From: Fimbriimonadales bacterium
GTDB lineage: Bacteria; Armatimonadota; Fimbriimonadia; Fimbriimonadales; ATM1
Reading direction: 5' to 3'
Assembly (NCBI GenBank): GCA_041744215.1
Contig: JBGTLG010000039.1
Coordinates: forward strand, 1 to 64,000
Length of the DNA stretch: 64,000 bases
Position numbers and translations under genes: made by a program. This document shows, one piece after another, positions 5,178-46,049 of this stretch. The first letter of the stretch is position 1, and each line of letters opens with the position of its first letter. Under the pieces are notes generated by a model. The model was not told the origin of the DNA. It saw only the letters and a program-made list of their open reading frames with translations, and did not search any database.

Positions 5178-6041
5178 TCAAGGGGCGACGTAGGGCTTGA
5201 CCTCACCTCTCTCGATTTTGTCGAGCCAGTAGGTGATGCCGTGGCTCCCCTCTACCGCTTGGATACGCGGCAGCCTGTACGGATCGAGTTTTTCGGAGGT
5301 AGGTGAGGGGGCAGGATTTGCCCCGACGAGCATCGCAGCCCTCATGCGGTAAGTCTTCCCGTTGTACGCAAATTCTCTGACTAGATCACGATTCTTGGGA
5401 AAGATGCCCATCGGCAAGGCGATTGAGTTGACCGAGAATCCGTACTTCTGAGCGAAGTCGATTACCCCTGCAATCTCTTTCTTAGCGTCATCGTCACTCA
5501 TCCGAGAAAGGTCGGGGTGCGTGAGCGTATGGTTACCAATCTCGCAACCCCACTCCTTAAGAAGTTGTGCCTTGCGCTCTGCGAACTTTGGTTGACCAAA
5601 GAATGGGTTCGGCATAATGTAGAACGTTGCTATCAGCGGAAAGTCAGGATGATCTTTCGCGAAATCCAGCCAGATTCCAACTGCACAGAGCGGATCGATT
5701 GACCCATTCTCCAGCATTCGAAACTGTGAAATGCTGGAGTCATCGAATGTGACAACAACAGGAGAAGCACCTGGAGCGAGATCCATTTTGTTGTCGAGAT
5801 AGGACATCAGGGTCACAGGGCGAAATCCTAACTCGTAAACACGCTGCAGATCGTTCTTGAAATCTTCCGGGGTGCGGTCGTATCTCCCTGCGCTTGGAAC
5901 AACACGGTGATACTGAAGTATCGGCACGACGCCGTCAAGGTTTGCAGGCCTGTCGCTGACACGCTTGGGAGGAGGTTTCGGCTCGGGGGCGCGAGACGCT
6001 TCCGGACTCGTTGCACAACCAAAGGTGCAAAATAGCAGCAT
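5178..6041 (-). CDS. Polysaccharide deacetylase (CE4), probable lipoprotein
   Basis: ILQYH, TFDD, HTLTH motifs; FGC lipobox-like; start uncertain. Confidence 0.85.
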   Translation of the reverse strand: MLLFCTFGCATSPEASRAPEPKPPPKRVSDRPANLDGVVPILQYHRVVPSAGRYDRTPEDFKNDLQRVYELGFRPVTLMSYLDNKMDLAPGASPVVVTFDDSSISQFRMLENGSIDPLCAVGIWLDFAKDHPDFPLIATFYIMPNPFFGQPKFAERKAQLLKEWGCEIGNHTLTHPDLSRMSDDDAKKEIAGVIDFAQKYGFSVNSIALPMGIFPKNRDLVREFAYNGKTYRMRAAMLVGANPAPSPTSEKLDPYRLPRIQAVEGSHGITYWLDKIERGEVKPYVAP

Positions 6042-7984: not shown

Positions 7985-8512
7985 ATGAAGATCCTAGCCG
8001 CCCTCGCCTTGGGCATTTACACAAGCTTTATGGCAACTCCCCAGGAGAACTTGCCAACGGCCGACCAGTATCAAACTGCATGGAATCACGCTCTCGTAAA
8101 CGCGAAAGACAAGCAGGAAGTGCGGATTGTTGACTTCAAAGGCAGATACAAAGCGATCGTCATTGACGCGTTCGCAAGTTGGTGCGGGCCATGCCAAGCC
8201 CTGATCCCCGAAGTTAACGCGATGCACGCACAGTATGGCAAGAAGGGTGTTCTGTTCATCGGATTGAATGTTCAAGACGAATGGGCTGCGATGCAAAAGA
8301 ACATCGATTCGAAGTCGATTCAGTACCTCGTACTGCACGATTCGACTGAGGGTTCTGTGATGATGCAAAACCTCAAGATCCCTGCTATTCCAATGGCAAT
8401 TGTGCTTGATGGCACGACGCTCAAGGAGAAGGGACGATTTTTGGGCAATCGACCGGCTCACAAAGAGGGCCAGCTGAAGCTGCTCGCCGAACTTGGGGTA
8501 GAAGTCGATTAA
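7985..8512 (+). CDS. TlpA-like thioredoxin-fold disulfide reductase, exported
   Basis: ASWCGPC, AIP cis-Pro, signal peptide, SD AGGAGG. Confidence 0.88.
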   Translation: MKILAALALGIYTSFMATPQENLPTADQYQTAWNHALVNAKDKQEVRIVDFKGRYKAIVIDAFASWCGPCQALIPEVNAMHAQYGKKGVLFIGLNVQDEWAAMQKNIDSKSIQYLVLHDSTEGSVMMQNLKIPAIPMAIVLDGTTLKEKGRFLGNRPAHKEGQLKLLAELGVEVD

Positions 8513-8555: not shown

Positions 8556-8614
8556 AGAGACAGTAGCAGAGGGGCATCGCCCCAACGTTTCACAAACCAG
8601 GAGGATTGACACTA

Positions 8615-9184
8615 ATGAAGAAGTTTGCATTACTAGGCGGCGCAGCCGCTGTGCTCACCGTGATCGCGATTGCCGGCAGCTCGGTTGAGTCTGGGCTCGC
8701 CGTTGGCGACACAGTCCCGGCGTTTCACCCTAAGCATGTCGCTGGGCCCCACAAAGGGACTGACGCTTGCCCACCCTGCACCTGGGGCGCGCGCCCTCAG
8801 GTCCAAGTCTGGGTTGGCTACGACAAGTCGGAAAACTCCACCAAGATCGCCAAGGCTTTGGAATCGGCGATGGTGAAGTACGAAGACAAGGAACTCAAGG
8901 CGTTCATGATCCACATGGGACGCTGCGAGGCTTGCACGACTGATATGCCGCCGAAACTCGAGGCGACTGCGAAGGAGTCTGGGTTAGAGAAGGTGGCAGT
9001 TGCCTTTCTTCCGAACGCCGAGGACCCTGCAGCAAAGAGCTATAAGATCAACGGCAGCACGGATGTCAAGAATACGGTTTTCGTCTACTCGAAGAAGCGA
9101 GTCGTCGCCAAATTCGTGAATCTGGTGGCCGATGAAGCGGGCCTCCAAGCACTCAACGAGGCGATCGCTAAGGTCGTCCAGTAG
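8615..9184 (+). CDS. Exported redoxin-like hypothetical protein with two CxxC motifs
   Basis: Signal peptide; GLAVGDTVPAF; CPPC and CEAC; SD GGAGG. Confidence 0.7.
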   Translation: MKKFALLGGAAAVLTVIAIAGSSVESGLAVGDTVPAFHPKHVAGPHKGTDACPPCTWGARPQVQVWVGYDKSENSTKIAKALESAMVKYEDKELKAFMIHMGRCEACTTDMPPKLEATAKESGLEKVAVAFLPNAEDPAAKSYKINGSTDVKNTVFVYSKKRVVAKFVNLVADEAGLQALNEAIAKVVQ

Positions 9185-9199
9185 GTCAGTAAGCTCGCG

Positions 9200-9233
9200 A
9201 AGGGTCGGCCTTTTAGGCCGACCCTTACATTTT
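9200..9233 (+). terminator. Intrinsic terminator
   Basis: AAGGGTCGGCC-TTTTA-GGCCGACCCTT followed by a T-rich tract. Confidence 0.65.
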
Positions 9234-9242
9234 CTCGACCAT

Positions 9243-9275
9243 ACTTCGATATTTCTCGAAATATCGTGGTATACT
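9243..9275 (+). promoter_or_regulatory. ArsR/SmtB-type operator adjoining a -10 box
   Basis: Perfect CGATATTTC-TC-GAAATATCG (11/13 matches when extended to 13-2-13), then TATACT 6 nt before GTG. Confidence 0.75.
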
Positions 9276-9281
9276 GAAAGT

Positions 9282-9647
9282 GTGAAACCGAACGAACGAG
9301 TTTTTCATGCGATGGGAGACGAGACTCGTCTCCGGATCCTGGCTTGCCTGGCAAAGACCGAGGAGTGCTGCCTTGACGTCTGCGCCTGTGAGTTGGTGGA
9401 CTCTCTGGAAGTCAAGCCCTCGACTCTCTCTTCGCACCTGAAGATTCTCCGCGCCGCTGGCCTCGTGCGAATGCGCAAGCAAGGCACTTGGATCTACTAC
9501 CGCCTTAGTGAGGACTTACCCGGGTACCTCGTTGAGGCGATCCGTGCAGCGGAGTTTCCTGAGAAAGACGCGACTCGGCTCGAAGAACGGTTTTCACTGC
9601 GCGTTGACGGTCGCTGCTGCGTATCCGCCGGTGCGCTCCAAAACTAA
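9282..9647 (+). CDS. ArsR/SmtB family metalloregulator
   Basis: FHAMGDETRLRIL, CCLDVCACEL, STLSSHLKILRAAGLV, GTWIYY, C-terminal GRCC. Confidence 0.92.
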   Translation: MKPNERVFHAMGDETRLRILACLAKTEECCLDVCACELVDSLEVKPSTLSSHLKILRAAGLVRMRKQGTWIYYRLSEDLPGYLVEAIRAAEFPEKDATRLEERFSLRVDGRCCVSAGALQN

Positions 9648-9665
9648 AAACAAGGAGGAAATCCG

Positions 9666-9731
9666 ATGAACGACGATAAGAAGGGTTGTTGCGGCTGCTG
9701 CGAAAACTGCGGCTGCTCTGGTTGCTGCTAA
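9666..9731 (+). CDS. 21-aa Cys-rich metallothionein-like peptide MNDDKKGCCGCCENCGCSGCC
   Basis: Strong SD AAGGAGG, 18 nt after the arsR stop, 8 Cys, followed by a hairpin; below ORF-track cutoff. Confidence 0.75.
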   Translation: MNDDKKGCCGCCENCGCSGCC

Positions 9732-9738
9732 GGAGAAA

Positions 9739-9806
9739 GGGCTCGCCAGTCGCGAAGTCGAGCCCCTTCTAAGGCCGGTTCCGCCCGCTCGCATGAGCGG
9801 GCGGAA
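9739..9806. terminator. Two hairpins between convergent genes
   Basis: GGGCTCG...CGAGCCC and TTCCGCCCGCTC-GCAT-GAGCGGGCGGAA. Confidence 0.6.
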
Positions 9807-9815
9807 TCTTGCGTC

Positions 9816-10091
9816 CTACGAATCTGTCTTTTTGGTGGACGATTTCTTGGCCGCCGTCTTCCTAGGCGCCGCGGGCTTCTTTACAGCTGCTGGCTTTTTG
9901 GACTCGGCAATGTTGGGTTTCGCTGGAGGAGCAGGTTGCTCAGCCTTCACGGGCTTCGGAGCCGCTTTCTTTGCCTTGGCCTCCGGCGGTGGACCGTCAG
10001 GAAGTATGAAGACGGTCTTCATGCGACCGCGCATTCGTTGCGCCGTTGTTCGTTGGCGCTTGGGTTTGCGTCCGCTTCGTTCAATTCCCAT
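9816..10091 (-). CDS. Small basic Lys/Ala/Pro-rich (histone H1-like tail) protein
   Basis: MGIERSGRKPKRQR...KKAAPKP...KKPAA repeats; SD GAGAGG. Confidence 0.7.
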   Translation of the reverse strand: MGIERSGRKPKRQRTTAQRMRGRMKTVFILPDGPPPEAKAKKAAPKPVKAEQPAPPAKPNIAESKKPAAVKKPAAPRKTAAKKSSTKKTDS

Positions 10092-10093
10092 TT

Positions 10094-10190
10094 CAGTTGA
10101 CCTCTCAAGAAACAGCGCGCCAGGCCTTCCAGGCGGGCGCGCGGAGCCGAGAGGATACCTCAACTGTCGGTCGACTGGCTTCTGCGAGGT
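10094..10190 (-). promoter_or_regulatory. Structured 5' leader sequestering the SD
   Basis: Nested complementarities CAGTTGA/TCAACTG, CCTCTC/GAGAGG and GCGCGCC/GGCGCGC. Confidence 0.5.
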
Positions 10191-10264
10191 AATCCACTAT
10201 AATGAGCCCGCGTGGAACGCAAACACCCATCCGTCCGTTCCTAAGTGTGAATTTGAGGTGAAAA

Positions 10265-11215
10265 GTGGGCCCAGCTGAGATTGCCAAACATGCGCAGGCT
10301 ATTTGCGATGAAGTCGAAACAGTCATCTTAGGGAAACGAGATACCGTCGAGAAGGCAGTCCTGACCTTACTTTGCAACGGTCACCTCCTATTGGAGGACG
10401 TGCCAGGGGTTGGGAAAACGATGCTTGCCAAGGTGCTTGCCCGTACGATCGGGGGCGAGTTCCGGCGTATCCAGTTCACACCCGATCTGTTGCCCGCAGA
10501 CATTACTGGGTCAAGCATATTCAACCAAATGGCGATGGAGTTTGAATTCAAGGCAGGTCCAATCTTTGGGAACATCGTCCTTGCCGACGAGATTAACCGC
10601 GCGACCCCCAAAACTCAGTCTGCCCTGCTCGAGGCGATGGAAGAAAGGCAGGTGACAACGGACGGCATCACGCGGATGCTGCCTTCACCGTTCTTTGTCA
10701 TCGCGACACAAAACAACGTTGAACTGGTCGGTACGTACCCTCTGCCCGAGGCGCAACTCGACCGATTCTTTGCCAAGTTGTCTCTTGGGTATCCGGACCG
10801 AGCGGTCGAGGCCGACATCCTGAGGGATCAGCAGAAGGTTCACCCAATCGAGAATGCCCGCCAGATCGTCTCGCCGGCAGATTTAATCGAGCTCCAGAAG
10901 GGAGTTCGCGATGTGTACGTGCACGCGAGTCTTCGGGATTACATCGTGGACATCGTCAACGCGACTCGTTTTTCCAATCAGATCATCCTCGGCGCAAGTC
11001 CACGCGGATCACTGCTTTTGATGCACGCGGCACAGGCACACGCCGCGATGGATGGCGTCGAGTTTGTCCGACCGGACGACGTCAAGGCAATGGCTCCATC
11101 GGTGCTATCCCATCGAATTGTCCCAAGAGCAGATCTTCGCTCCCGCGGCGTCAGCGTTGAAGAGCTGATCGAGTCAATCGTGGATTCGATTCGTGCGCCT
11201 GTACCCGTTGCATAA
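10265..11215 (+). CDS. MoxR family AAA+ ATPase
   Basis: EDVPGVGKT, RIQFTPDLLPADITG, DEINRATPKTQSALLEAM, LPEAQLDRF. Confidence 0.95.
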   Translation: MGPAEIAKHAQAICDEVETVILGKRDTVEKAVLTLLCNGHLLLEDVPGVGKTMLAKVLARTIGGEFRRIQFTPDLLPADITGSSIFNQMAMEFEFKAGPIFGNIVLADEINRATPKTQSALLEAMEERQVTTDGITRMLPSPFFVIATQNNVELVGTYPLPEAQLDRFFAKLSLGYPDRAVEADILRDQQKVHPIENARQIVSPADLIELQKGVRDVYVHASLRDYIVDIVNATRFSNQIILGASPRGSLLLMHAAQAHAAMDGVEFVRPDDVKAMAPSVLSHRIVPRADLRSRGVSVEELIESIVDSIRAPVPVA

Positions 11216-12433
11216 ATGCGTCGCTACACAGTCCTGACTATCTCGACCTCCGGCGTCTTTCTTATGATCGTCGGCGTGCTAACGAACACGCAGACATTGT
11301 TTTACATGAGCACCGTCATGATCCTGATGCTGATTGTGATGCGGCTACAGGCGGGGCTTGCAACCAGGGGCCTTCGATTCGAAAGAATTGCACCAACTAC
11401 GATTGTCGCTGGCGAACTTATCACGATGCGGATCAGGGTTTGGTCTTCGATCCGGCTACGAAGGCCGCTCCTCTTCATTATCGATGACCTGCCTCCTGGA
11501 CTATTACATCAGGCGGACATGCGGCCTTTGCCAGTCGCGCCAGATTTTGAACAGGCTGTTGAGACCCGCTACGAATTGCGCCCGCACAAACGAGGCATTT
11601 TTCGATGGTCTACCATTCGCGTATCTAGCACTGATTCATTAGGCATAATCAGAGTTGAGAAGTCGTATGAGACCGAGCCTATCGAGTTGGTAGTCTATCC
11701 GTCCCAGATTCCTTTTGGGCTCGATCTGGTAGCTCTAAGTGGATGGGGCGCGAACCAAGCCGATCAAGGTCGAAACCGAGGCCAGGGAATTGAACCGAGA
11801 GGAGTCCGCGAGTTTCGCTCTGGAGACTCTTTGCGATTCGTTCATTGGAGGACTACTGCGCGCACCGGTCAATTGCAGGTTAAGGAGTTTGAAACGGGTT
11901 TCAATACGAACGTGACGATTCTGATTCAACAAACAGCTGGAAGCGAAGCGGGGAAAGGCGCCTACACGACACTCGAAGCAATGTGTGGCCATGCAGCATA
12001 CTTAGCGGATGTTCTCTTGCAGCGGGGGAGCCCAGTGAAGTTGCCGAATCTCGAACCTGCCGGCGCCGAACCTGCGAATTCTGCAGGTATTCGGTACGAG
12101 CAGATAGCAGAGGCACTGGCGGCGGCAGCAGCAGACCGCTCGGAGCCATTTGCCTTCGAGGTCGACTCCCTTATTGAGACTCTGGGACCTTCGTCGACTG
12201 TGGTTCTCTTCATGGCGGCAGCGGAGCCGGGACTCGCAGAGTCTATTCGAAGGCTTGCTGGGGTGGCCTCGGTCGTCGCACTGGTATACAGCCCAGATCA
12301 CTTCGCCGGCGACAAGATTGATGTCCGGCTTAGGCCGTCGATTGACCCTGACTTTCTAGCGAAAATCGCCGCTCCAACCGTGGCGATAAGACTGATGCAA
12401 AACCCCTATGCAAGCGACACACAAGCGGCTTAG
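11216..12433 (+). CDS. DUF58 domain protein
   Basis: REFRSGDSLRFVHWRTTAR, VKEFE; follows moxR. Confidence 0.9.
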   Translation: MRRYTVLTISTSGVFLMIVGVLTNTQTLFYMSTVMILMLIVMRLQAGLATRGLRFERIAPTTIVAGELITMRIRVWSSIRLRRPLLFIIDDLPPGLLHQADMRPLPVAPDFEQAVETRYELRPHKRGIFRWSTIRVSSTDSLGIIRVEKSYETEPIELVVYPSQIPFGLDLVALSGWGANQADQGRNRGQGIEPRGVREFRSGDSLRFVHWRTTARTGQLQVKEFETGFNTNVTILIQQTAGSEAGKGAYTTLEAMCGHAAYLADVLLQRGSPVKLPNLEPAGAEPANSAGIRYEQIAEALAAAAADRSEPFAFEVDSLIETLGPSSTVVLFMAAAEPGLAESIRRLAGVASVVALVYSPDHFAGDKIDVRLRPSIDPDFLAKIAAPTVAIRLMQNPYASDTQAA

Positions 12434-14480
12434 TGCAGAGCAGCAACTAGTTCACTTGGAGGCGAGTGCGCTCGATTACATGGTTCTGGCTGCCGCCGGG
12501 ATTGTCCCGTTGTTTCTTGCTGGCACCGCAATTCAAAAGCCGAATATCGGGATTGCCTTTTCGATCTTGTATGCCCTCGGCCTGCTCACGTCATTCGTCA
12601 TTCGTCGAAGTTTCCCACCGAACAAGCTGTTTCACCATTGCGCGTGGCTACAGTTGATCGTAGCGTTGTTTATCTCATTCAACCTTGGCAATCTGAACGG
12701 CATGTTGCCAGACGGCGGATTTGACCCACGGCTTTTCGTTCCGGCATACCTCTGCTTCCTAATGTGTCTCGGAAGCTTTTTCTATTGGTCTGACTCTCCT
12801 ATGATGTTCATGACCGTGCCGGGCGTTGCTCTCTTTGGCATCCTCAGCTGGCTTGAAACGAGCGGGTTCTTTGAGGTGTCGCTCATTCTTTTTATGGCAA
12901 GTGTCGCCGTGCTCTTGACCCGGCTGCACCTTCGCTCGATGTATGCAAGCGCGAGAGCAGCGGGTGCAACCGACTTGCCTGAGTTGCACAGAGGACCTTG
13001 GCGAGCCGTTGCCGGCCCATTTCTTGCGATTCTCACAATTCTTGCAGTTGCGGGATTCTCTTGGTTTGTCGCGCCAATGCTCGGCTCTGCGGCAAGGGCA
13101 GCGGTCGGCAATCCGACGCTGAACTTCACGCCACCTACACCGCGAGCAACACAGGGTTCAGGAGTCGTCGCGCAACGCACTATAGGTAACGGTCCTTCGT
13201 CCAGTAGCAATCGAGAGATCGTCAAAGTCAAGGCTGACATCCTTCCACCGTACGTTCGCACCACAAGTTACGACAGCTACCGACGGACAGGGTGGAATGA
13301 AGCGCCGAGCGTTCGAGAGGTTGAGCCCTCTGCTAACCGGCCCGCCACGAATCTGCGCAATCCACGGGTGTATACGTTCGAGTTACCGCGTCAAATCGCA
13401 CGCGGCCGGATCGTCGACATGTTTGTGCGATCCGCTTCCGGCGGGCATACCTATGCTCCTGTTCCTGGCCCGGTCATCCAATTCGAGTATGAAGGCAACA
13501 TCTCTATCGACCGGCGGCAGTTCATTGTGCTTAGTGACGGCTTCCCCGTGGACAAACAGTTCTTTGTTCGCGCGCAGTGGCAGATGCCCACGGCGGAGAT
13601 GCTTCGCGCAGCGACGCCGGCAAGCGAGCGGTCGCCAACATTCTCCCCAGGCTTCGATGTTATCGATCCACGCGTGATTGCGCAAGCGCGAGAATTAGTC
13701 GTTGGGCGGCAAACTGATTACGACGTGATTCTCGCAATGATGGACTTCATTGCGGACCGTTGCAGATACAATCTAAATGCCGAGGCGATCACAGGAGACA
13801 AAGATCGGGTCGCCGAGTTCTTGTTCGAGACAAGGGAAGGCTACTGCGATCTGTTTGCGAGCTCGCTCGCGGTCATGCTGCGGTCCGTCGGAATCAATGC
13901 GCGTGTCGTCATTGGATTCCGCATCACAGACGCTCCTGACGCCGAAGGTTGGGTCACTATTCGCGACCGAAACGCCCATATGTGGACAGAGGTTTACTTT
14001 GAGGAGTACGGCTGGATCCCGTTTGATGTAACGGACATGGCTCAGGCCGTCCCCGGCGGCGAGTTGGGAACTTTGCTCGACGAGGAAGAAGGGCTGGCTG
14101 GAGTCTCGTGGGCGATGAAAGCGGCCGGCATAATCTTCGGATCTGCAGCGCTGATACTTATCATCGCTTTCGCAGTCGGGGCCTTACGAAGTCGCAACTC
14201 AATAACTGGAACGTACCGCAAGCTGCGCCCGAGCTATCTCGTTTTCTTACGGGTCATAGCAAAGCAACTGAAGAGACCGAAGATGCCCTCGGAAACGACG
14301 CGTCAGTTCGCGATTGCTTACCGCGACGCTGCTGGCAACGGCGAGATCGTTCTTGACATAGCCAATAAGTTTGAGTCTGCTTTCTACGCAGCGGATGAGC
14401 CGACACACGAACAAATCGAGACAATTCGAAGTAGCGTTGACAAGTTGGTCGCCGCAGTGAGGAACGGAAATGGCCGTTAG
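12408..14480 (+). CDS. Membrane transglutaminase-like protein (TgpA-like)
   Basis: Multiple TMs; GYCDLFASS, HMWTEVY, FDVT Cys-His-Asp triad. Confidence 0.9.
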   Translation: MQATHKRLSAEQQLVHLEASALDYMVLAAAGIVPLFLAGTAIQKPNIGIAFSILYALGLLTSFVIRRSFPPNKLFHHCAWLQLIVALFISFNLGNLNGMLPDGGFDPRLFVPAYLCFLMCLGSFFYWSDSPMMFMTVPGVALFGILSWLETSGFFEVSLILFMASVAVLLTRLHLRSMYASARAAGATDLPELHRGPWRAVAGPFLAILTILAVAGFSWFVAPMLGSAARAAVGNPTLNFTPPTPRATQGSGVVAQRTIGNGPSSSSNREIVKVKADILPPYVRTTSYDSYRRTGWNEAPSVREVEPSANRPATNLRNPRVYTFELPRQIARGRIVDMFVRSASGGHTYAPVPGPVIQFEYEGNISIDRRQFIVLSDGFPVDKQFFVRAQWQMPTAEMLRAATPASERSPTFSPGFDVIDPRVIAQARELVVGRQTDYDVILAMMDFIADRCRYNLNAEAITGDKDRVAEFLFETREGYCDLFASSLAVMLRSVGINARVVIGFRITDAPDAEGWVTIRDRNAHMWTEVYFEEYGWIPFDVTDMAQAVPGGELGTLLDEEEGLAGVSWAMKAAGIIFGSAALILIIAFAVGALRSRNSITGTYRKLRPSYLVFLRVIAKQLKRPKMPSETTRQFAIAYRDAAGNGEIVLDIANKFESAFYAADEPTHEQIETIRSSVDKLVAAVRNGNGR

Positions 14481-44296: not shown

Positions 44297-44824
44297 ATGA
44301 CCACACTTCTCGCTACCCTCATCCTCTCGACCGGATTTGCGCCGGCCCAGGATCCAAACCCGCAGGTTTCCTTGACAATTCAGTCACGGGGAGAGATGGT
44401 CATTGAGCTTTTTCCGCAAGACGCGCCGAAAACTGTGGCCCAGTTTCTCAAACTGGTCAACAGTGGCTTCTACAACGGTGTTCTGTTTCACAGGGTTGAG
44501 AACTACCCCCGCCCGTTTATCGTGGTGACTGGTGATCCGTTGACCAAAACCCTTCCGCTGACCGACCCGCGAATTGGGACCGGGGGGAGCGGCAACACGC
44601 TTCTCTTCGAAAGCAACAAGCGCTCCTTTGCCAATGGAACCGTCGGGCTTGCTCGCGACCAGAAGGATAAGAACAGCGGAGACAGCCAGTTCTTCATCTG
44701 CAACGGCCCGCAGAAGTTTCTTGACGGCTCATACGTCGCGTTCGGGCAAGTCGTAAAGGGCATTGAGATTATCCCCAACATTGCGTTGGGTGATAAGGTT
44801 ACGTCGGTACGCCAAACTCGCTGA
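44297..44824 (+). CDS. Exported cyclophilin-type peptidylprolyl isomerase
   Basis: APKTV, FYNGVLFHRV, SQFFI, LDGSYVAFGQV. Confidence 0.92.
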   Translation: MTTLLATLILSTGFAPAQDPNPQVSLTIQSRGEMVIELFPQDAPKTVAQFLKLVNSGFYNGVLFHRVENYPRPFIVVTGDPLTKTLPLTDPRIGTGGSGNTLLFESNKRSFANGTVGLARDQKDKNSGDSQFFICNGPQKFLDGSYVAFGQVVKGIEIIPNIALGDKVTSVRQTR

Positions 44825-44879
44825 TCAAGGCACTGCCCGATGGGATGCGGCCCCGGCACCCAGGTACCCTTCGGATCAG

Positions 44880-46049
44880 ATGCACTACATTGACCCATTC
44901 GGAAAGGACGACCTTGTCACGCTTCGAGCCATCCGTGAAGATCATTGTGTCTCGCTCTACCTGCCAACCCACCGGAAAGGGTCAGAGGTTGCTCAAGATC
45001 CCATTCGGCTTAAGAACCTGATTGCGCGAGCTGAGGAAGTCCTCAAGACCAGGGGAGCACGCTGGGACGTCATCGAATCCATCCTAGGCGAAGCGAAACA
45101 GCTTCTCGACAAGGAGTTTTTTTGGCAGCACCAGGCAGACGGTCTAGCGATATTCGCAAAACCAGGCGAAACACGAGCGTTTCGAACCGGAGTCGGCTTT
45201 GGCGAGGCGGTGACAGTGAGCGGTCGCTTTGACTTAGCGCAGATGGTTCGACTTCTCGCTTCCGATGGCCGATTCTACGTGCTCGCCCTGGGGGAGCAAA
45301 TGGTCAAGCTGCTGGAGGGTACGCGATTCAGCGTCTCCGAGATAGCGTTGGACAATCTGCCCCAATCCATTGACGACGCCCTCAAACTGGATGATCCTCA
45401 AAAGCAACTGCAGTACCATACGGGCGCAGGCGCCAGCTCCGGCGGCGGTAGAGCGGCAATCTTTCACGGACACCGATTCGATGGATCCGAAAACAAAGAG
45501 AACCTGAAGAGATTCTTCAACATCGTCGACCGCGGGCTGGAGCCCCTGTTTAAGCATTACCCTGCGCCGGTCGTCTTGGCTGCGGTGGAGTACTACTTCC
45601 CACTTTACTTGGAGGTCGCGAACATTCCGGGACTCGTCGAGGGCGGTATCAAAGGCAACCCCGACGTCATGCGAGACGAAGAGCTGCACAAGGCGGCTTG
45701 GAGCATCGTGTACCCAGCGTTCAAGAAGTCGCAGGAGGATGCACTGGAGCGTTACGCTCAAGTTATCGGTACCGGCCAAACTACACAGGGCGTGGAGGGC
45801 ACCGCGATAGCGGCATATCAAGGAAGGGTGGACACACTGTTCGTCGACACTGAGCCAGACGTTTGGGGCGAAATCGACGAAACAACCCAATCGGTCAGCA
45901 TCCACGAGGTTGAAAACGCAGGCGATCTCGAACTCGTCAATGAGACGACTCTTGCTGTTCTGACAAGCGGTGGAAGGGTGTTTACGATGCCAAGCGCAGA
46001 GGTTCCAGGCAGTGGCCCGATGGCCGCGATCCTTCGCTACGCTGGCTGA
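44880..46049 (+). CDS. baeRF family (aeRF1/Pelota-like) protein
   Basis: CVSLYLPTH, DPIRLKNL, GLAIFA, FYVLAL, AAYQGRVDTL, AAILRY. Confidence 0.8.
   Translation: MHYIDPFGKDDLVTLRAIREDHCVSLYLPTHRKGSEVAQDPIRLKNLIARAEEVLKTRGARWDVIESILGEAKQLLDKEFFWQHQADGLAIFAKPGETRAFRTGVGFGEAVTVSGRFDLAQMVRLLASDGRFYVLALGEQMVKLLEGTRFSVSEIALDNLPQSIDDALKLDDPQKQLQYHTGAGASSGGGRAAIFHGHRFDGSENKENLKRFFNIVDRGLEPLFKHYPAPVVLAAVEYYFPLYLEVANIPGLVEGGIKGNPDVMRDEELHKAAWSIVYPAFKKSQEDALERYAQVIGTGQTTQGVEGTAIAAYQGRVDTLFVDTEPDVWGEIDETTQSVSIHEVENAGDLELVNETTLAVLTSGGRVFTMPSAEVPGSGPMAAILRYAG

Follow-up and report, generated by a model that had tools for sequence, protein, structure and literature searches.

Positions 9190 to 9810 of the 64-kb stretch of DNA analysed here (contig JBGTLG010000039.1, positions 1 to 64,000; hereafter the window), which a genome scan assigns to the Fimbriimonadales (Armatimonadota), hold a compact plus-strand unit in which arsR, the gene for an ArsR/SmtB-family repressor, is followed by a small open reading frame (ORF) for a cysteine-rich peptide (Table 1). 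The cassette takes up about 570 bp in total and comprises a sensor, an operator and a candidate chelator. The initial annotation of this DNA had read the unit as a minimal metal(loid)-sequestration system, pointing to a palindromic operator with a -10 box, a strong Shine-Dalgarno sequence, an ORF of 21 codons with eight cysteines and a hairpin behind it. All of these elements are present where it had put them, the hairpin being joined by a second one, and the same arrangement recurs in two other genomes of the order (loci L001 and L002).

A two-gene unit with a cysteine-rich small ORF

The regulator is a member of the ArsR/SmtB family, its domain matching both Pfam HTH_5 (PF01022, E=1.5e-12, 47.6 bits against a cutoff of 22) and NCBIfam NF033788 (86.9 bits against a cutoff of 55), and the regulators of L001 and L002 likewise pass these family cutoffs. 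It carries the cysteine-based sensor motif of ArsR/SmtB regulators: across 21 aligned members of the subfamily C34, C36 and C112 are invariant, C34 and C36 being the CxC of a CVCELVD-type motif and C112 lying within a conserved C-terminal LRVDGxC motif. To this set the Fimbriimonadales clade adds C29, C30 and C113. By analogy with known structures we place the C34/C36 CxC in helix alpha-3, and we take the protein to have no His/Asp ligands of the alpha-5 type, its site presumably consisting of the alpha-3 CxC and the C-terminal cysteines. The closest solved structures, the CadC-like Lmo1102 and SmtB, are distant (E 1e-9 to 1e-7). The regulator is also rare. Among about 5.8 billion clustered proteins it is represented by the window's own record and by three relatives that are 83, 80 and 78% identical, followed at a distance by a match at 45%, and its clade amounts to about six clusters at 90% identity (the window's record, P0002, P0003, P0004, the L002 protein and P0121). 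So small a number of clusters suggests that the module is rare and so far confined to the Fimbriimonadales.

At the level of sequence, arsR is preceded by a candidate operator, an imperfect inverted repeat over its own promoter of the kind typical of genes for ArsR/SmtB repressors. The arms of the dyad (9241-9255 and 9258-9272) are 15 nucleotides each and 87% complementary, and its core is without a second copy in the 64-kb window. The promoter, TCGATA-18 nt-TATACT (9246-9275) with TG before the -10 hexamer, is the sole sigma-70-like match between positions 8500 and 10400 (shuffle mean 0.5). Six nucleotides past the hexamer, at the predicted +1, stands an in-frame GTG. The gene call in the window's own protein record (P0001) begins instead at the downstream ATG, where in L002 a Leu codon takes the place of a start. 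Because the GTG is spaced identically in all three loci, and because L002 lacks a start codon at that internal position, a leaderless arsR message with its GTG at the predicted transcription start, as the initial annotation had supposed, is the best-supported arrangement.

The small ORF opens 18 bases past the arsR stop codon. Its product is 38% cysteine and has an acidic/basic N-terminus; in this peptide, as in those of L001 and L002, the cysteines form CC and CxC motifs only, and there is neither an aromatic residue nor His. These are the properties by which metallothioneins are described, namely low mass, about 30% cysteine in CC, CxC or CxxC motifs and no aromatic residues. Within the window the ORF is the only one with at least six cysteines among 791 ORFs of 12-40 amino acids (six frames), and none of 100 windows re-sampled from a first-order Markov model contained an ORF of that length with at least eight cysteines, the maximum being seven. 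A chance origin of the cysteine-rich ORF is very unlikely. The signals around it are less distinctive: AAGGAGG is not enriched in the window (7 matches, 8.05 expected), and the dyad core with up to three mismatches is not rare by itself (at least one match in 49 of 100 shuffles). Since both are common by chance alone, they carry weight only through their position and their conservation.

The three peptides matched no Pfam family at E up to 10, and the peptide of the window matched no NCBIfam family at E up to 1 and no PDB sequence at E up to 10. A tblastn search against a set of 72,556 plasmids, again with E up to 10, returned no match either, which is weak evidence given that the low-complexity filter was on. 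With no profile match, no His and a length of 21-25 amino acids, the peptides fall outside BmtA/SmtA and the other metallothionein families that are defined by sequence.

The unit is set off on both sides. On its left stands the terminator hairpin of an upstream gene for a 192-residue protein (-23.5 kcal/mol, z = -4.61). On its right, the hairpin directly behind the peptide stop codon probably terminates the bicistron, and the second hairpin is probably the terminator of the convergent gene beyond it or a bidirectional terminator; jointly the two reach -45.8 kcal/mol (z = -4.41), and none of 200 shuffles folds equally well. The initial annotation had noted that the unit includes neither an efflux pump nor a reductase. 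This holds for the whole window, since Pfam scans of its larger ORFs (50 + 8) turned up neither an arsenate reductase nor a P-type ATPase, an RND or CDF pump or ArsB/Acr3, and the unit has no other effector nearby; a TerC-family gene lies 47 kb from the unit.

Table 1. Positions of the features of the arsR-peptide unit in the window and, in the last line, of two related operons in other genomes
Feature	Position	Strand	Remarks
Terminator hairpin of the upstream 192-residue protein gene	9200-9226	+	left boundary of the unit; perfect 12-bp stem and T-rich tail
Dyad over the -35 and -10 regions, candidate ArsR operator	9241-9272	.	core TTCGATATTTCTCGAA at 9245-9260
Extended -10 element TGGTATACT	9267-9275	+	-35-like TCGATA at 9246-9251
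arsR, ArsR/SmtB-family repressor	9282-9647	+	121 amino acids from GTG 9282, or 111 from ATG 9312
Shine-Dalgarno sequence AAGGAGG	9652-9658	+	7 nucleotides before ATG 9666
Small ORF, candidate metallothionein-like peptide MNDDKKGCCGCCENCGCSGCC	9666-9731	+	21 amino acids, 8 cysteines
Hairpin directly 3' of the peptide stop codon	9734-9770	+	probable bicistron terminator; from folding
Second hairpin, separating the unit from the convergent minus-strand ORF (9816-10163)	9777-9808	.	perfect 14-bp stem; from folding
arsR-copZ-copA operons	L003 628-4440; L004 4280-6300		loci from the genome scan

Recurrence of the module in two further genomes

Relatives were sought in a genome scan with an alignment of four clade sequences and the clade-specific patterns CCLDVCAC and K[DQ]GTW[VI]YY, which yielded 57 loci, and these were passed through a script for small ORFs (10-80 amino acids, at least five cysteines and at least 20% cysteine). 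It returned 10 ORFs in 9 of the 57 loci. Only two of them, in L001 and L002, lie directly behind arsR with at least eight cysteines, the other eight being unrelated sequences elsewhere in their loci. A scan of this kind behind arsR homologs had been proposed as a check on the initial annotation, and its outcome is favourable: an ORF with Shine-Dalgarno sequence, start, stop and cysteine richness is kept in two further genomes, one of them in a different context. The comparison of the module covers the window, L001 and L002; P0003, P0004 and P0121, which come from metagenome-derived protein sets, were left out.

L001 belongs to a Fimbriimonadales metagenome-assembled genome whose ArsR is 83% identical to that of the window, and its peptide, MNDDKKCDCGCGCRGCGCGCC (5387-5452), again has 21 amino acids and eight cysteines. 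L002 belongs to another such genome, with an ArsR at 53% identity, and encodes MDTKPCCENGSCGCGCCGCGKCNCC (5367-5444), which counts 25 amino acids from the Shine-Dalgarno-proximal ATG and has ten cysteines. The module is conserved in both, from the block that runs from the operator core to GTGGTATA(C/A)T, through the GTG six nucleotides past the -10, arsR, AAGGAGG, the ATG and a CC-stop end, to a terminator hairpin in the same position, which in L002 has a canonical U-tract (z = -7.75). The block is near-invariant, with an identical core and with GTGGTATA(C/A)T conserved in all three loci, even between loci whose ArsR proteins are 53% identical. The arsR genes of the window and L001 differ by 49 synonymous and 20 non-synonymous codons out of 121, and this excess of synonymous differences indicates purifying selection. 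For the peptide, six-frame translation of the downstream regions shows that no frame but the cysteine one retains both start and stop across the three loci; in L002 the remaining frames run into stops. The ORF lengths of 66 and 78 nucleotides differ by 12, a multiple of three, and TGT and TGC interchange at cysteine codons among the loci.

The two genomes place the pair in different surroundings. L001 is syntenic with the window, sharing the thioredoxin-like gene, the gene for the 192-residue protein, moxR, a DUF58 gene and a transglutaminase gene. In a comparison against the first 22 kb of the window, L002 matches in arsR only. The genes around the pair there encode a PMT-family glycosyltransferase, a histidine phosphatase, an Lnt-like protein and, convergently, a member of the Pup-ligase family. 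Its occurrence in this unrelated context suggests that the arsR-peptide pair behaves as a portable two-gene unit.

The peptide ORF lies in the frame of arsR, with one stop codon between them, in the window (9645-9731) and in L002 (5349-5444). It does not do so in L001 (5364-5452), and read-through of the stop codon, which would fuse the peptide to ArsR, was rejected as unconserved. Several ArsR relatives at 38-44% identity (P0005-P0007, P0011, P0060) have extra cysteines in their C-terminal tails, and the predicted P0121 protein, which is 91% identical to the L002 ArsR, extends 15 residues beyond the position of the L002 stop. The shared frame and the cysteine-tailed relatives hint that fused and split forms of a regulator and a cysteine-rich tail may exist.

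A candidate repressor-metallothionein module and its likely metal

With moderate confidence, we favour the reading that the unit is a self-contained, autoregulated module of a repressor and a metallothionein-like peptide, analogous to SmtB-SmtA and BxmR-BmtA. From its sequence we infer how such a module would work, that is, where transcription starts, that the peptide is translated, that metal relieves repression, that the peptide binds the metal and which metal this is. Apo-ArsR, as a cysteine-based sensor-repressor, would bind the dyad and occlude its own extended -10 promoter. A thiophilic metal captured at the cysteine site (C34, C36 and C112, with C29, C30 and C113 in this clade) would cause ArsR to release the DNA, and the transcript would then start at the arsR GTG, so that the repressor would be made from a leaderless message. 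The bicistronic transcript may be expected to yield little repressor and much peptide, since the former would be translated from a leaderless GTG and the latter from a consensus Shine-Dalgarno sequence. The eight thiolates of the peptide could buffer the metal in a cytoplasmic thiolate cluster in the style of a minimal metallothionein, and as free metal falls ArsR would again repress the operon. It is from the linkage to ArsR alone that we infer metal-thiolate clusters and induction of the peptide by metal.

The pairing has precedents. SmtB represses smtA, as the initial annotation had noted; SmtA has 56 amino acids and uses Cys and His, PmtA has 70, and BxmR, an ArsR-family protein reported to sense copper, controls the synthesis of a metallothionein as well as a Cu-ATPase (PMC12193353). 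The unit resembles SmtB-SmtA of Synechococcus and BxmR-BmtA of Oscillatoria in combining an ArsR/SmtB repressor with a small cysteine-rich cytosolic product, and in an operator that overlaps the promoter. It differs from SmtA in the size of this product, less than half the length of SmtA or PmtA, and in the lack of His and of a family match. Moreover, smtB and smtA are divergently transcribed, whereas here a single co-directional bicistron opens with a leaderless repressor gene, whose product would use the alpha-3 CxC and C-terminal cysteines instead of ligands of the alpha-5 type. In length the peptide is closer to the copper metallothioneins of Neurospora crassa and Agaricus bisporus (fungal family 8), which have 26 amino acids and seven cysteines, were once considered the shortest, are rich in Cys, Gly and Ser and bind copper through thiolates only (PMC4755600). 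The size comparison made in the initial annotation is thus a fair one. However, the fungal proteins are eukaryotic and under other regulation, with no demonstrated sequence relationship to the peptide of the window, which is shorter still and has one cysteine more. Another bacterial metallothionein named in the literature is MymT (PMC12193353). It too is a cysteine-rich bacterial peptide, with no detected sequence similarity to ours. MymT of Mycobacterium tuberculosis, about 53 residues long, is a copper-induced Cu(I) binder that early annotation overlooked, and its regulator is of the CsoR type rather than an ArsR.

If it acts as proposed, the peptide is probably smaller than any other gene-encoded metal binder seen in bacteria. 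Our full-text searches, whose coverage leaves out most subscription journals, yielded no description of so small a metallothionein-like peptide from bacteria, nor of a cysteine-rich small ORF downstream of arsR. New to the field would be the minimal peptide family and the layout of its operon, the pairing of a repressor with a metallothionein being already known. We hold more tentatively, at a little short of an even chance, the broader claim that the peptides of 21-25 amino acids form a new bacterial metallothionein family, unrelated in sequence to the others and below the fungal minimum of 26, that is hard-wired to a leaderless ArsR as a portable two-gene cassette. A bolder extension of it is that the peptide might exchange metal directly with the cysteine site or tail of ArsR and so tune the switch.

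As to the metal, the nearest other ArsR proteins of the Armatimonadota, at 42-43% identity in loci L003 and L004, share C34, C36 and C112 and an LR(V/I)DGRC tail, and have copZ-copA in place of the peptide. They belong to the same subfamily and have a metal-handling effector in the downstream slot, but they lack C29, C30 and C113, and their effector is a 70-residue HMA chaperone followed by a P1B-type ATPase. The ATPase fits copper models best, with 670 bits to CopA PRK10671 and 591 bits to TIGR01511, a copper-type model whose cutoff is 397; to the Cd-type TIGR01512 it reaches 404 bits. These operons suggest that the ancestral effector of this ArsR branch was Cu(I) and that the peptide occupies the effector slot. 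In the window, Cu(I) is most likely the metal sensed, perhaps with a cross-response to Ag(I) or Cd(II), and As(III) is the main alternative. Of the metal(loid)-sequestration system proposed at the outset, the compact, terminator-bounded arsR-peptide bicistron stands; the emphasis on arsenic finds no specific support, the nearest regulators controlling copper export. The ATPase of L003 and L004 has an N-terminal cupredoxin-like domain, and a divergent gene for a YHS-domain lipoprotein-like protein lies beside both operons.

Should the peptide indeed bind metal, ribosomally made metallothioneins would prove to extend to a smaller size than known before, and those of bacteria would have a third phylum of origin, the little-studied Armatimonadota. 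It would also imply that resistance effectors can hide under the length limits of gene callers, and that arsR genes considered 'orphan' may not be orphans. Being compact and natural, the cassette could also find use as a part in designs for biosensing or bioremediation. Finally, it offers a clean system for two questions: what minimum of cysteines supports a stable metal-thiolate cluster in vivo, and how leaderless as opposed to Shine-Dalgarno-led translation sets the amount of repressor relative to effector.

Alternative readings and genomic setting

Several observations weigh against a repressor-metallothionein module. Its conservation rests on three loci, and membership of the peptide among metallothioneins rests on composition, as it has no detectable homology to their families or to solved structures. 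The peptides align poorly beyond Cys and Gly, an ungapped comparison of the window with L001 giving 12 identical positions out of 21, and they are encoded in a TGC/GGC-rich, low-complexity DNA tract whose evolution could proceed by slippage. Over the first 18 nucleotides of the ORF, the window and L001 do not differ even by a synonymous change, which would also fit a constraint at the level of RNA. Regarding the metal, vicinal cysteine pairs are typical of As(III) sensors and of ArsD as well, and the ArsR family includes sensors of persulfides or redox state rather than metal. In addition, the operons of L003 and L004 have a distinct operator dyad, ATATCC..GGATAT, which makes any inference of the metal from these relatives weak.

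Some of these points would be explained if the ORF were untranslated, the tract being a low-complexity RNA or DNA element in the 3' untranslated region of arsR with an incidental open frame. The composition, the identical 18 nucleotides and the poor alignment all suit this possibility, and an Rfam search of 9100-9900, which gave only four matches, all far below their gathering scores, leaves room for an RNA role. Nevertheless, we think it improbable, because all three loci retain an optimally spaced consensus Shine-Dalgarno sequence along with an ATG and an in-frame stop, despite regulators at 53% identity and a length change of 12 nucleotides, because the alternative frames are broken in L002 and because such a cysteine content did not arise in any of the shuffled windows.

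It is equally unlikely, in our estimation, that ArsR senses thiol-reactive stress (oxidants, electrophiles, persulfides or reactive sulfur) in the manner of BigR or SqrR, with the peptide serving as a sacrificial thiol or as a sulfane-sulfur or redox buffer. An all-cysteine sensor with vicinal pairs would be suited to this task, and in the window and L001 the unit lies just downstream of a TlpA/ResA-like thioredoxin and the CPPC/CEAC protein; ArsR also gives a weak, sub-threshold match to the BigR model. However, these thioredoxin neighbours are missing from the L002 context, and the BigR match (40.9 bits) is far under the cutoff of 155. Moreover, the nearest Armatimonadota relatives with the same cysteine triad control copZ-copA, and a peptide of 21 residues would seem a costly thiol buffer compared with low-molecular-weight thiols.

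Considerably less probable is that the ORF senses cysteine, with ribosomes stalling at its Cys codons when Cys-tRNA is scarce and thereby controlling a downstream gene or the fate of the mRNA. The 8 to 10 Cys codons, some of them consecutive in CC pairs, and the stable hairpin immediately after the ORF are reminiscent of such a device, and there is a mycobacterial precedent in polycysteine small ORFs, also tiny, unannotated and with consecutive Cys codons, which are reported to be cysteine-responsive attenuators that are leaderless, first in their operons and upstream of co-directional cysteine-metabolism genes (bioRxiv 10.1101/834739). By contrast, the ORF of the window and that of L002 are Shine-Dalgarno-led, second and last in the operon and followed by terminators; no co-directional target lies beyond them, the next gene being convergent in both contexts (the Pup-ligase family gene in L002, 9816-10163 in the window), so that there is nothing downstream to attenuate. 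Least probable of all is a secreted peptide or a precursor of a ribosomally synthesized and post-translationally modified peptide (of the thioamide, thioether or chalkophore type), for which only the short, cysteine-rich nature of the small gene speaks, whereas neither the window nor L002 has a gene for a radical-SAM enzyme, cyclodehydratase, lanthionine synthetase, protease or exporter within about 5 kb (the sole radical-SAM gene of the window, CofH/MqnC-like, is 38 kb away), the 21 residues show no leader/core organisation and the regulator is of the metal-sensor type.

The unit is located in a core-chromosome setting, the window encoding rpoB, rpoC, metG, ligA and sdhA/B among others. Immediately upstream, between the TlpA/ResA-like thioredoxin gene (7985-8512) and arsR, lies the gene for the 192-residue protein (8606-9184, plus strand). 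This protein is hydrophobic at its N-terminus, contains the motifs CPPC and CEAC and matches no Pfam or NCBIfam family; its L001 counterpart is 86% identical, and it is absent from the L002 context. Downstream, a plus-strand trio of genes for a MoxR AAA+ ATPase, a DUF58 protein and a transglutaminase-like protein (10265-14480) is 70-89% identical in L001. Much farther away, a plus-strand gene (44763-46046) encodes a protein of the bacterial archaeo-eukaryotic release-factor-like (baeRF) family (E=1.7e-42). The minus-strand ORF that converges on the unit (9816-10163) encodes a Lys/Ala/Pro-rich product of 115 residues with no family match, which is 55% identical over 97 amino acids in L001, and it overlaps an ORF of 161 codons antisense to it (9793-10278). 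In the comparison of this region between the window and L001, substitutions amount to 65/140, 30/139 and 43/138 in the three phases, and since they are fewest at the second codon position of the minus frame, the minus-strand ORF is favoured.

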